A stretch of 64,000 nt of DNA from Escherichia coli (GTDB taxonomy: Bacteria; Pseudomonadota; Gammaproteobacteria; Enterobacterales; Enterobacteriaceae): NCBI RefSeq assembly GCF_050920415.1, contig NZ_CP169310.1; one strand, written 5' to 3'. Below, one piece after another: positions 21,062-27,000 of the stretch (position 1 is its first letter; each line of letters begins with the position of its first letter). Made by a program: the position numbers.

Positions 21062-24000
21062 CAATGGAACAAATTGCTGCCCATTGTGAGTCATATTCGC
21101 CCTGATTTTCCAGCACCATACGGGTCGCCCGCTGACGGACTTCGGGGGAAAACCAGTATTTTTAGTCATCCTGTTTACCTCCTTCTCAGAGAGTTTCATC
21201 TCCAGGATTCCCGGGACAGTTCACAGGAATTCTGCACTTTGATAATTTTGACGATGCCGTTAAGTGCTGCGCAGACCTGAATATTTCGTTCTTTGTGGAT
21301 GTGGGAAACAAAAAGATGGTCTTCTGGTTTGTTCGTGTTGATGACGAAGGCTATCCGGAAATTGCCCGCTGTACGGAGTGGGTGTTTGCGACCATTCTTG
21401 CCGGTATCAGCGCCGGCGGTATGTACTGTCCGGAGTGCGGCACGGTTCACTGGCCGGACGGAGTCCCCCCCCTTCTGATGCTTCCCTTTTTGCCGACATT
21501 TTTCAGCAGGGAAACCGCTTCGTCAGAGGGGGAAGTCGCAGTGGTCACCCGACTCAGTACTTTAGTGTCAACCTCCGGTATCTAGTTGCTTCTCCTCTGC
21601 TCTATAAAATAAATCAACTATCATCACACTGCGAGTTCATATGTACCGCCAGTGACGCATCTGAAAAACGCGTCAATATGAGTTCACCGGAATATTACTT
21701 ACCCCCGGAACATCACCAAAGGGAATGGAGGGAGAGGGGAGACTGATTTTGGCTAAAAGTTAATTGCCCATAAAATAATTTAACATTAAAATAACCATAT
21801 TTTTTCATGTCTTAAGTTTAAGCTGGAGAAAAAATGGAGTTCAATCGGAGACAGTTCTTTCGAATCTGCGCGGGCGGTATGGCAGGAACAACTGTTGCAT
21901 CTCTCGGATTCTTATCATCTTTTTCCGTTCACGCGGAAACCCGTCAATACAAACTCTTAAAAGCAAAAGAGACACGTAATAACTGCACATACTGCTCAGT
22001 AGGGTGCGGCATGCTGATGTACAGTCTTGGCGATACAGCTAAAAACGTCAAAGAAAGTATCTACCATATTGAGGGCGATCCGGATCATCCGGTGAGCCGT
22101 GGCTCGTTGTGTCCTAAAGGCGCTGGCGTGTTGGATTATATTCATAGTAAAAACCGTCTGCAGTATCCCGAATATCGAGCACCTGGGGCAGATAAATGGC
22201 AGCGTATTAGCTGGGATGATGCGATTAATCGTATTGCCCGACTCATGAAAGATGATCGTGATGCCAACTTTATTGAGAAAAACGCACAGGGCGTTACTGT
22301 CAACCGATGGGCCACTACAGGCATGCTATGTTCCTCAGCGGCAAGCAATGAAACCGGGATCCTTGACGGTAAATTTGCTCGTGGACTAGGTATGGTCGCT
22401 ATCGACTGTCAAGCACGATTATGTCATGGCCCCACCGTTGCTGCTCTTGCACCAACATTTGGACGTGGTGCTATGACCAACAATTGGGTCGATATTAAAA
22501 ATGCCAACGTAATACTTATTATGGGCGGCAATGCTGCTGAGGCACATCCGGTAGGCTTTAAATGGGTGGTCGAAGCGCAAACTAAAAACGACGCGACCGT
22601 GGTGGTGGTAGACCCGCGCTTTAACCGTAGCGCCGCCGTCGCCGATCTGTATGCGCCAATACGCGCTGGTTCAGACACAGTATTCCTGCTCGGAGTAATC
22701 CGTTATCTGCTGAAGAACAACCGGGTGCAGCACGACTATGTGCGCCATTACACGAACGCCAGCCTTATAATACGTGATGACTATCAGTTCAATGACGGTC
22801 TGTTTAGCGGCTATGACGACAAGAAACGTCAGTATGATAAATCAAGTTGGTTCTATCAGCTTGACGAACAGGGTAATGCCCTGCGTGATGATTCATTGAA
22901 TCACCCACGCTGCGTGTGGAATTTGTTGAAAACTCACGTCGAGCGTTATACGCCAGAAATGGTTAACCGACTGTGTGGGACTACCGTGGCGGATTTCAAT
23001 CGAATCTGCGAAATTCTCGCTAGTACCTGTGTTCCTGATCGCACCGCCACCATCCTGTACGCACTGGGTTGGACACACCACTCCAACGGGGCACAGATTA
23101 TTCGCGCCGCTGCTATGCTCCAGTTACTACTGGGTAATATAGGTATGGCAGGCGGTGGTGTTAACGCCCTACGTGGCCATTCCAATATTCAGGGATATAC
23201 CGATCTTGGCTTATTGTCGACAAACCTGCCGGGCTATATGCCGCTGCCGTCGGAAAAACAGCCAGACTATCAGACCTATATTTCGCAAATCACGCCACCT
23301 GCGTTAGGTGTGAATGAGGTCAATTACTGGAAAAATACTCCGAAATTCTTTGTTAGCATGATGAAAAGTTTCTGGGGCAATAATGCAACAGTGGAAAATA
23401 ACTGGGGCTACGACTGGCTACCTAAATGGGATCGCCTGTATGACGTAATGACTCAGACCGAATTGATGCTCGAAGGGAAGCTCAATGGTTACATCGTTCA
23501 GGGATTTAACCCACTGGCGGCGTTTCCCGATAAAAACAAATCAATTCGGGCACTTTCCAAACTGAAATATATGGTGGTTATCGATCCACTGGCCACTGAG
23601 TCTTCCAATTTTTGGCAGAATCATGGCGAGATGAACGATGTAACCCCGGCAGATATTCAGACCGAAGTTTTCCGCCTGCCATCTTCCTGCTTTGCTGAAG
23701 AAAATGGTTCAATAGCTAACTCCGGGCGTTGGTTGCAGTGGCACTGGGCTGCGGCAGAACCACCAGGTGAAGCCTGGCATGACGGAAAGATCCTTGGCCA
23801 CCTGTTTATGCGACTGCGTGAACTATATCAGCAGGAAGGCGGAGCGAATCCTCAACCCTTGTTGAATATTGCCTGGAATTATAAAGATCCATATGACCCA
23901 CACCCAGAAGAGATTGCTCGTGAAGCAAATGGCCAGGCACTTGAAGACATTTATGATGATAAAGGCCAGCTTATTGCCCAGAATGGTCAGCAGCTCAGCA

Positions 24001-27000
24001 ATTTTGCACAGTTACGCGATGACGGCTCTACCAGTTGTTTCTGCTGGGTCTACTGTGGAAGCTGGACAGAGCAAGGTAACCAGATGGCAAATCGTGATAA
24101 TAGTGATCCATATGGTTTGGGCTGCACACCGGGCTGGGCGTGGTCATGGCCAGCCAACCGCCGTATTCTCTACAATCGCGCTTCGGCAGATCCATCAGGA
24201 AAACCGTGGGATCCAAAACGAGCTCTGCTGCATTGGGATGGCAGAAAATGGCTCGGTATGGATGTCGCAGACTATGATAAGGCAGAACCGGGCAGCAGTG
24301 TTGGTCCGTTTATCATGAATCCGGAAGGTGTAGCGCGTTTGTTCTCCATCGACAAAATGAACGACGGGCCATTCCCGGAACATTACGAACCCATTGAGTC
24401 GCCTATTGGTACTAACCCGCTGCACCCGGATGTTGTATCCAGCCCAGTTGCACGTATCTACAATGACGATATCACCAATATGGGTAAAGCGGATGCCTTC
24501 CCGTACATCGCAACAACTTACTCCATTACGGAACTGTTTCGCCACTGGACCAAACATGCTCTGCTCAACGCCATCGTTCAACCCGATCAATTCATCGAAA
24601 TCGGTGAGGCGCTGGCGAGCAAAAAAGGCATTAAAGCTGGTGATACGGTGAAAGTGATGTCGAAACGCGGCTTTATAAAAGCAAAGGCGGTGGTCACCAA
24701 ACGTCTGCAAACGCTGATGATCGATGGTAAGCAGGTCGATACAATCGGTATTCCTTGTCACTGGGGCTTTGAAGGTGCTACACGCAAAGGGTTCCTCGCC
24801 AATACGTTAACGCCATCGGTGGGTGATGCGAACTCGCAAACACCGGAGTATAAAGCATTTCTGGTCAACATAGAGCGAGCGTAAGGAAGGTGACTCATGG
24901 CTATGCAATCACAAGATATTATAAAACGCTCTGCGACGAACAACATCACGCCGCCGCCTCAGGCGCGGAATTACCGTGCAGAAGTGGCGAAACTAATTGA
25001 TGTAACCACCTGTATTGGGTGTAAAGGCTGTCAGGTAGCATGCTCAGAGTGGAACGATATTCGTGATGAAGTGGGTTACTGCAACGGAGTCTATGACAAC
25101 CCGACAGATCTCAGCGCTAAGTCTTGGACAGTGATGCGCTTTAGCGAAACCACCCAGAACGATAAGCTGGAATGGCTGATCCGCAAAGACGGTTGCATGC
25201 ACTGCGCCGATCCTGGTTGTTTGAAAGCCTGTCCATCACCTGGAGCAATCATTCAGTATGCCAACGGGATTGTCGACTTTCAGTCCGAGCACTGCATTGG
25301 CTGTGGCTACTGCATTGCTGGCTGCCCATTCAATATTCCCCGGCTTAATCCTGAAGATAATCGGGTCTATAAATGTACGTTGTGCGTTGACCGGGTCAGC
25401 GTGGGTCAGGAACCTGCCTGCGTGAAAACTTGTCCGACCGGTGCTATCCAGTTTGGAACCAAAAAAGAGATGCTTAATGTAGCTGAAACTCGTGTGGCAC
25501 AGTTGAAAAAACGTGGCTATGTCAACGCGGGTATTTACAACCCTCAAGGGATTGGCGGCACCCACGTGATGTATGTACTTCATCACGCGGATCAACCATC
25601 TCTTTACCACAATCTGCCAGATGACCCCAAAATCGCCGTACCAGTAAACTTCTGGAAGGGGATTTTAAAACCACTCTCCGCAGCCGGATTTATCGCCACT
25701 TTTGCCGGGCTGATTTACCACTACGTGGGAGTAGGCCCAAACAAAGAGACGGATGATGATGAAAAGGAAAACGGTCATGAGTAAAAGCAACATGATTCTG
25801 CGTACCAAATTTATCGACCGTGCTTGTCACTGGACGGTGGTAATAAGCTTCTTCCTGGTGTCACTTTCCGGTATTGCGCTTTTCTTCCCAACATTGCAAT
25901 GGCTTACTGAAACCTTCGGTACACCGCAAATGGGACGAATTCTACATCCGTTTATCGGAGTGATGATTTTCATCATGCTGATGTTTATGTTCGTTCGTTT
26001 TGTATACCACAATATTCCCGATAAACAGGATCTTCCTTGGATTAAAGGGATCGTTGATGTACTTAAAGGCAATGAGCATAACGTCGCTGATGTGGGGAAA
26101 TACAACGCAGGGCAGAAAATGATGTTTTGGAGCATCATGAGCCTGATTCTGGTATTACTGGTTACCGGCGTTATTATCTGGAGGCCATACTTTGCCCATT
26201 ATTTCTCAATTAACATAGTTCGTTGGTGTTTGTTAATCCACGCGACAGCAGCTATTGTACTGATTCACGCCATTCTGATTCATATATACATGGCGTTTTG
26301 GGTAAAAGGTTCAATTAAAGGTATGATTGAAGGGAAAGTTAGTCGACGCTGGGCGAAGAAACACCATCCTCGCTGGTATCGTGAGGTTGAATCTACTGAA
26401 AAAGAAACAACGGAATTACAGTCTAAGTAAAAGATCACCTCCTAAGGAGCTGGTTTCAGATTGCAGACAAAGTCCTAAATAACTGCTCCTAATACCGCTA
26501 CACTGTAAGCGTCAACGGAGCACCGTATTGACGCTTATTTATTGGTGAGAACTACGTTCCATGGCAGGAGTTCGTCAACACGGTTGGAGGGCCATTCCGG
26601 CAGTACGCTCAGAATATGGCGCAGATACGCTTCCGGATCGATACCGTTCAGACGGCAGGTGTCGCGATCAGCCCGTACAGCAGTGCACCACGCTCGCCGC
26701 CGTGATCGCTACCGAAGAACACGTAATTTTTCTTTCCGAGACAGACAGCACGAAGCGCTCTTTCCGCTGTGTTATTGTCCGCCTCCGCCAGACCGTCATC
26801 ACTGTAATAACAGAGGACGTCCCACTGATTCAGTACATAGCTGAACGCTTCGCCCAGTCTGGAGTTTTTCGACAGCGTGCCATTCTTCTCCACCATCCAT
26901 TCATGCAGCGACGTCAGTAACGCTTTGCTTCGCTGCTGCCTGACTGCTATTCACCGGAAAGGAGCCAGTCAGTGAATACCTAGTGAAATCGCTTCACCAG

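Follow-up and report, generated by a model that had tools for sequence, protein, structure and literature searches.

We analyzed a 64,000-nucleotide (nt) stretch of Escherichia coli DNA (NCBI RefSeq assembly GCF_050920415.1, contig NZ_CP169310.1; hereafter the window, in whose coordinates all positions are given). An open reading frame (ORF) scan identified three same-strand (+) ORFs that form an intact fdnG-fdnH-fdnI operon at 21834-26430. Judged by their sequences, these genes encode an FdnGHI-type formate dehydrogenase-N (FDH-N), with Cys at the molybdenum ligand position that is occupied by selenocysteine (Sec) in the E. coli enzymes. The operon and the stretch upstream of it comprise the following features.

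21661..21833, + strand: non-coding sequence carried along with the operon, a putative promoter and 5' untranslated region (blastn end points, alignments)
21834..24884, + strand: fdnG, catalytic molybdopterin alpha subunit of the Cys type, 1016 amino acids (aa), without internal stop (ORF scan, TIGR01553, 1KQF_A alignment)
21834..21935, + strand: predicted twin-arginine translocation (Tat) signal peptide (MEFNRRQFFRICAGG...SVHA), with the twin-arginine motif read directly and an alignment with the E. coli FdnG signal peptide
22422..22424, + strand: TGT codon for Cys197, the molybdenum ligand position, equivalent to UGA/Sec196 in E. coli FdnG and FdoG (raw sequence and alignments)
24897..25784, + strand: fdnH (annotated as fdxH), beta subunit with four [4Fe-4S] clusters and a C-terminal membrane anchor, 295 aa (TIGR01582, E. 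coli FdnH alignment)
25777..26430, + strand: fdnI, gamma subunit, di-heme cytochrome b with a quinone site, 217 aa (NF007558, alignment, RefSeq start)

The alpha subunit scored 1542.9 bits against TIGR01553 (cut-off 814.2) and the beta subunit 467.4 bits against TIGR01582 (cut-off 334.7), both NCBIfam equivalog models. The gamma subunit reached 434.2 bits with the FDH-N gamma model NF007558 (cut-off 339) and only 265.5 bits, below the cut-off of 341, with the FDH-O gamma model NF007924; consistently, it is 79% identical to FdnI and 47% to FdoI. The alpha subunit aligns end-to-end (1760 bits; residues 1-1015 of 1KQF_A with residues 1-1016 of the query) with the alpha subunit of E. coli FDH-N, whose structure has been solved, so that the colinear, stop-free 1016-aa protein described in a first-pass annotation of this DNA is borne out. 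A global alignment showed that the MEFNRRQFF twin-arginine motif, the FS0 ligands C51/C54/C58/C93, K95, the C197-H198 pair, and R447 are all kept. The Tat signal peptide, whose cleavage site we place by alignment with E. coli FdnG, would send the folded alpha subunit to the periplasm. FdnH retains 17 out of 17 Cys of E. coli FdnH (16 cluster Cys plus one), while FdnI retains heme ligands His18/57/155/169 and quinone-site residues Asn110/Gln113, in agreement with the earlier description of a four-cluster beta subunit and a cytochrome b gamma subunit. Sister plasmid copies of the operon (L088, L090-L095) and a Citrobacter locus (L003) have Form-deh_trans (PF09163) recorded for their beta products.

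Gene order and the 8-nt overlap of fdnH and fdnI are identical to those of the chromosomal, Sec-containing E. coli FdnGHI. The overlapping junctions reported in the first-pass annotation are thus correct for fdnH/fdnI and not for fdnG/fdnH, where a 12-bp spacer harbors an AGGAAGG ribosome-binding site for fdnH; the fdnG ribosome-binding site is GGAG at 21825-21828. The fdnI ORF could start at 25753 (225 aa) or 25777 (217 aa), and the ATG at 25777 is the start adopted in RefSeq and in the E. coli homologue. What sets the plasmid enzyme apart from E. coli FdnGHI is Cys (UGU) in place of Sec (UGA), the lack of a functional Sec insertion sequence (SECIS) element, its location on a plasmid, and an identity of 71% at the nt level and 70/85/79% at the aa level (alpha/beta/gamma).

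The raw sequence around the codon in question reads cgatta TGT catggcccc, which translates to QARLCHGPT. The X that stands for Sec196 in 1KQF_A aligns to Cys197, and the neighboring correspondences (U196 to C197, H197 to H198, and R446 to R447) place TGT where a selenoprotein formate dehydrogenase (FDH) would have an in-frame UGA. That the TGT might be a misread or misassembled TGA, in a gene that is in truth a Sec-type fdnG, has a negligible probability, nothing in its favor, and is already refuted: TGT is present in 17 independent complete plasmids, the identical FdnG protein is indexed on 863 contigs, and TGT or TGC is found in all of the 71 Cys-type loci among the 80 closest species loci, the other 9 of which have TGA. 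Furthermore, the residues downstream of the codon follow the Cys-type pattern (VAALAP, not VASLAP), and the SECIS is degenerate (see below). Cys also occupies the Sec position in each of the best 120 hits from a large protein collection.

In a neighbor-joining tree the window FdnG lies deep within a Cys-type Enterobacteriaceae clade, together with Citrobacter, Kluyvera, and Phytobacter, while Sec-type FdnG and FdoG form a separate clade of their own. With Cys at the ligand and this tree placement, the protein belongs to the Cys-type FDH-N clade of Enterobacterales and Pseudomonas. The previous wording, that Cys replaces Sec, is accurate as to the position and misleading as to this copy: on the evidence of the tree and of the 71 out of 80 loci, Cys at the ligand is a trait of a large, old, and widespread clade and not a local replacement. 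A recent Sec-to-Cys change of an E. coli gene was considered and rejected, given 70% and 68% aa identity to E. coli FdnG and FdoG, respectively, and the nesting in the separate clade.

No SECIS-like hairpin had been expected in this gene. A degenerate SECIS-like stretch does occur at 22419..22477 (+ strand), with a sub-threshold score of 44.7 bits against Rfam SECIS_3 (gathering score 63), compared to 84.3 bits for the E. coli fdnG control. Four pairs of the match are flagged as broken or non-canonical, and its folding z-score is -1.6. When the family structure was applied to 84 homologues, Sec-type genes (n=11) had 13-14 of 16 pairs, an apical helix that was always 5/5, and a loop that was always GUC, whereas Cys-type genes (n=73) had 8-15 of 16 pairs, a 5/5 apical helix in 11 cases, and never a GUC loop. 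The window sequence has 12/16 canonical pairs, an apical helix of 4/5, and a CUC loop. The resemblance to a SECIS arises because the peptide HGPTVAALAPTFGRGAM is conserved, and Cys-type genes keep their 8-15 pairs through this peptide conservation; we therefore rejected a functional or “fossil” SECIS, and the expectation stands insofar as no functional element is present. As far as can be judged from these comparisons, the stretch is a by-product of conserved coding and no working element, which would in any case be irrelevant beside a UGU codon.

The window is part of a ~225-kb heat-stable enterotoxin (STa)-encoding plasmid of the Shiga toxin-producing/enterotoxigenic E. coli (STEC/ETEC) hybrid type, with 100% identity to pCFSAN004181P of E. 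coli GB089. Sixteen other plasmids of 138-242 kb match it with 99.4-100% identity across the operon region; the sources of these sixteen are bovine faeces, beef, lettuce, sprouts, humans, a crow, and a pig. Of 5,426 complete E. coli genomes, 17 carry the operon, every time on a plasmid, whereas 5,425 have the native Sec-type fdnG, at a median of two places per genome. The plasmid operon is hence an extra copy beside the chromosomal Sec enzymes. Together with the affinity to Citrobacter described below, these counts uphold the first-pass view of a horizontally acquired paralogue.

A scan of one genome per species revealed that the closest chromosomal operons are those of Citrobacter youngae and Citrobacter sp. 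FDAARGOS_156 (95% aa and 92.0-92.9% nt identity), with the Cys-type fdnGHI of C. freundii also among the nearest. Kluyvera, Phytobacter, and other Citrobacter species follow at 92% aa identity, Klebsiella (K. oxytoca group) at 90%, and Pantoea, Kosakonia, and Lelliottia at 87-88%. The Citrobacter operons share the Cys motif DCQARLCHGPT and equal gene lengths with the plasmid operon, and differ in being chromosomal with native flanks (frmR-frmA on one side and umuDC-like genes on the other), of which the plasmid keeps 81 bp upstream and 2 bp downstream. The 90%-identity protein cluster shared with Citrobacter and others has 1,562 members. The phylogenetic check proposed earlier to identify the donor lineage thus leads to a Citrobacter-like relative; since the nearest Citrobacter sequence is ~7% divergent at the nt level, the true donor is unsampled. 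Operon GC content (47-51%) is like that of E. coli, and a compositional sign of foreign origin was accordingly sought and rejected.

Homology with Citrobacter, as delimited by blastn, is confined to 21753-26432, that is, from 81 bp before the fdnG ATG to 2 bp past the fdnI stop. A second E. coli context (L086:7828-12635, GCA_051559265.1) contains a 95.8%-nt-identical variant of the operon beside a Pap/Mrp-like fimbrial operon and shares 21661-26470 with the window, with slightly longer flanks than Citrobacter, which hints at either a second acquisition or an intermediate carrier. The shared limits, 21661/21753 to 26432/26470, define a transferred unit of ~4.7-4.8 kb. The upstream breakpoint of the window recurs in pOkiPb01695_1, a plasmid that is more divergent, and this points to a single acquisition for this plasmid lineage. 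Taken together, these sequence comparisons make horizontal acquisition of the operon well supported. In two Citrobacter loci (L003:8248-9674 and L014:5004-6427), fdnGHI lies near divergent frmR-frmA genes for formaldehyde detoxification, an arrangement absent from the other 78 species loci.

Given these observations, our preferred reading, which we hold with a probability of about 0.65, is that the window carries a horizontally acquired, intact operon for a third respiratory FDH of FDH-N architecture, on a p7v/pCFSAN004181P-like STa virulence plasmid. The segment would derive from an unsampled bacterium related to the Citrobacter youngae/freundii group and would have been trimmed by insertion sequence (IS) activity, and a formate:menaquinone role is inferred from the homology with 1KQF. 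The Tat pathway would export FdnG together with FdnH, and periplasmic formate would be oxidized to CO2 at the molybdenum-bis-molybdopterin guanine dinucleotide (Mo-bis-MGD) cofactor, with Cys197 (assisted by His198 and Arg447) as the protein ligand in place of Sec. Electrons would then pass from FS0 through the four FdnH clusters to the two FdnI hemes, and menaquinone would be reduced on the cytoplasmic side, with a redox-loop contribution to the proton motive force. Because the ligand is encoded by an ordinary UGU codon, synthesis should need no selenium, SelABCD, or SECIS element. Cofactor sulfuration and assembly would rely on the chromosomal fdhD, fdhE, and moa/mob genes; fdhD and fdhE are absent from the window, where tblastn gave matches only at E values above 0.9, and hence maturation must use chromosomal genes.

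Substitution patterns indicate purifying selection on the operon. The ratio of nonsynonymous to synonymous substitution rates (dN/dS) relative to the Citrobacter orthologues is 0.04-0.14 for the three genes, and the 23 differences between the window and pOkiPb01695_1 comprise 16 synonymous and 7 non-synonymous ones. In 17 out of 17 complete plasmids the operon lies in one uninterrupted alignment piece and is annotated as intact (16 plasmids matched a 4,801-bp query over its whole length and one over bases 1-4782). On this sequence evidence the operon is real and intact, and probably working.

Several points weigh against such a conclusion. The transfer is younger than most of the dN/dS signal, and 23 differences make a small within-plasmid sample. 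In some sister plasmids, represented by L089 (9064-11230; GCA_046698015.1) and two similar contigs, an IS110-family element splits fdnH at the equivalent of 25366-25368, which shows that the plasmid lineage can, at least in part, do without the operon. Only 81 bp of Citrobacter upstream sequence (173 bp relative to the second E. coli context) accompanied the operon. Promoter-like consensus matches at 21749-21776 and 21764-21792 are no commoner than in shuffled sequence, that is, at chance level, and no NarL heptamer (TACYYMT) is found within 330 bp upstream of fdnG. The position aligned with the FNR site of E. coli fdnG has TTAATTGCCCATAA, in which 4 of 10 letters mismatch, among them the G of TTGAT, while the best FNR-like site of Citrobacter, TCAATTTTTATCAA, is located 144 bp before the ATG, beyond the breakpoint, and was left behind. 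Finally, the turnover of E. coli FdhF falls strongly when its Sec is exchanged for Cys (work cited in PMC7384014 and PMC3349551), and the specific activity of the plasmid enzyme may consequently be below that of the native enzymes.

As to regulation, no FNR-like site with three or fewer mismatches occurs in 21661..21833, and the single 3-mismatch match within 330 bp is at about 21604, 230 bp before the ATG and outside the transferred stretch. FNR/NarL control was rejected on these grounds, as there are no acceptable sites and the best FNR-like site of the donor is outside the transferred segment. Nitrate inducibility is doubtful for want of NarL heptamers or a good FNR site, and in the sense in which “N” denotes NarL heptamers, an FNR site at -42.5, and nitrate/anaerobic induction, the plasmid operon would not appear to qualify for the letter.

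These same features are what would be expected if the operon were a silent passenger, that is, cargo trapped in IS debris, cut from its native regulation, with little or no transcription and heading to decay, its intactness reflecting recent acquisition. The truncated upstream region without an FNR or NarL site, the lack of a significant promoter signal, the IS110 insertion in fdnH of some copies, and an IS3 element ~150 bp upstream of fdnG in another (L095) all fit this idea. So do the 99.4-100% identity among plasmid copies, which leaves little time for decay, and the presence of two native enzymes in the host. Yet all 17 complete plasmids keep the operon uninterrupted, differences between the plasmid variants favor synonymous sites (16:7), the ribosome-binding sites have been retained together with translational coupling, and the 95.8%-identical variant is intact in a second, unrelated E. 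coli context. We consider silence rather unlikely.

Experience with other enterobacteria lends credibility to a functional Cys-type FDH-N. Natural Cys-type FDHs function in vivo in enterobacteria without Sec machinery, and fdn-like operons are expressed there (PMC7384014, PMC3349551). Dickeya and Pectobacterium possess Cys-type FDH-N/O homologues that form a clade apart from the E. coli enzymes and lack NarL heptamers (Babujee et al. 2012, PMC3349551), and anaerobic induction of their fdn-like operons has been shown (PMC3349551); the natural Cys-type FdhF of P. atrosepticum is active in vivo (Finney et al. 2019, PMC7384014). Like the plasmid enzyme, to which they are 73-77% identical, the Dickeya and Pectobacterium enzymes have a natural Cys at the Sec position. 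However, those hosts lack Sec machinery and have Cys enzymes as their sole FDHs, whereas the E. coli host also has Sec-type FDH-N, FDH-O, and FDH-H.

A different function for the complex was also weighed. The FDH-N fold could serve mainly in CO2 reduction, in the oxidation of H2 with dyes or of another substrate, or in a different acceptor pathway, rather than in formate:menaquinone respiration. E. coli FDH-N and FDH-O have side activities, for example as H2:benzyl viologen oxidoreductase (PMC3160892); the alpha subunit is only 70% identical to FdnG, compared to 85% and 79% for beta and gamma; and the operon is near frmR-frmA in the two closest Citrobacter loci. Against this, conservation extends to the active-site Cys-His and Arg, all clusters, the hemes, and the quinone-site residues, the equivalog cut-offs are exceeded by a wide margin, and the frmRA adjacency is limited to two loci and was not transferred. 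Such a distinct redox module, which the first-pass annotation had also mentioned, is in our view very improbable. A functional link to formaldehyde detoxification via frmR-frmA was rejected separately, the arrangement being found in only two Citrobacter loci, unconserved in the clade, and untransferred.

A third respiratory FDH acquired from a Citrobacter-like bacterium, as we favor, would be of interest for several reasons. In the gut, enteric pathogens, such as Salmonella in the mucus layer, have been documented to gain fitness from formate oxidation by FDH-N and FDH-O (PMC10470504). If the plasmid adds a selenium-independent and possibly differently regulated FDH, it would be a simple case of metabolic cargo carried along with toxin and adhesin genes, and a ready-made Cys-type FDH-N compatible with E. 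coli maturation factors would, if real, be useful for engineering. The main value of the locus lies in a clean, datable example of an operon that moved from a Citrobacter-like chromosome to an E. coli plasmid. Its novelty is limited in other respects: the genes are correctly annotated (the RefSeq annotation of the identical plasmid already names them fdnG, fdxH, and fdnI), the enzyme type is described in other enterobacteria, and the protein is an ordinary member of a widespread Cys-type clade. The p7v-like plasmids of STa-encoding STEC/ETEC hybrids were described by Okuno et al. 2023 (PMC10100065), a paper with no mention of formate, and a literature search found no description of a plasmid-borne fdn operon, although the original plasmid paper (Leonard et al. 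2016) was outside its reach.

A benefit under selenium limitation, as proposed in the first-pass annotation, is speculation. One may go further and imagine that the Cys-type FDH-N serves STa-positive STEC/ETEC hybrids and cryptic clade I strains as a metabolic factor tied to their niche or virulence. IS remodelling would in that case have given the operon a promoter independent of FNR and NarL, and the bacteria could respire formate in the bovine or human gut whenever the native enzymes are held back by selenium supply or by slow SelB-dependent UGA decoding; this advantage would be the reason for the lasting linkage to toxin and fimbrial genes on this plasmid lineage. We regard this extended scenario as unlikely.

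The surroundings of the transferred segment agree with the earlier description of IS debris on both sides and a toxin gene nearby, as judged from BLAST searches and the RefSeq annotation of the identical plasmid. The flanking features are as follows.

17619-17837, + strand: heat-stable enterotoxin gene of the STa/STp type, translation ending NTFYCCELCCNPACAGCY, ~4 kb 5' of the operon and between IS fragments
20990..21519, no strand assigned: mosaic of IS remnants directly 5' of the insert (BLAST versus E. coli genomes with annotated features; RefSeq annotation of the identical plasmid)
20990-21066, within this mosaic: IS21/IS100-like end
about 21062-21229, within this mosaic: IS3/IS1203 fragment
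21227-21519, within this mosaic: IS91-family fragment
26431..26505, + strand: short 3' flank, in which Citrobacter homology stops at 26432 and homology with the second E. coli context at 26470
26506..27135, - strand: IS66-family remnant that closes the insert, with terminal repeat GTAAGCGTCAACGG... and truncated transposase and TnpB fragments (sequence, hairpin, RefSeq annotation of the identical plasmid)

Further upstream of the short IS3 and IS91 fragments, RefSeq and BLAST indicate IS3 and IS21/IS100-like pseudogenes. On the other side, no terminator is predicted in the 3' flank (26431..26505), and the terminal repeat of the IS66 remnant begins at about 26506. A mobile unit bounded by terminal repeats around the operon was rejected, since the search gave no more than short repeats at chance level and the terminal hairpin of IS66. 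A ~300-bp IS91-family-related repeat is present in three copies in the window (16556-16857, 21222-21519, and 55566-55863), one of which stops ~230 bp 5' of the transferred segment. One-ended transposition of the IS91 type could have contributed to building this region.

Other parts of the window hold further cargo. A complete-looking gentisate/3-hydroxybenzoate catabolic cluster at about 3694-9719 is a second metabolic cargo block on the virulence plasmid, with genes for a monooxygenase, maleylacetoacetate isomerase, an FAH-family hydrolase, gentisate 1,2-dioxygenase, an MFS transporter, and a LysR regulator (coordinates carried over from RefSeq for the identical plasmid, with an offset of +175). 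The IS66 remnant is followed directly by a polysaccharide-type cluster of low GC content (33-39%), which extends from 27337 to about 37500 on the - strand and has genes for a nucleotide-sugar dehydrogenase, an alginate-export-family outer-membrane protein, two APH-family phosphotransferases, an ABC transporter, and three glycosyltransferases. An S6-family serine protease autotransporter (SPATE) gene at 38594-42433 and the K88/F4-like fimbrial genes faeI and faeJ at about 44900-46500, all on the - strand, fit the STEC/ETEC hybrid plasmid known from the literature.

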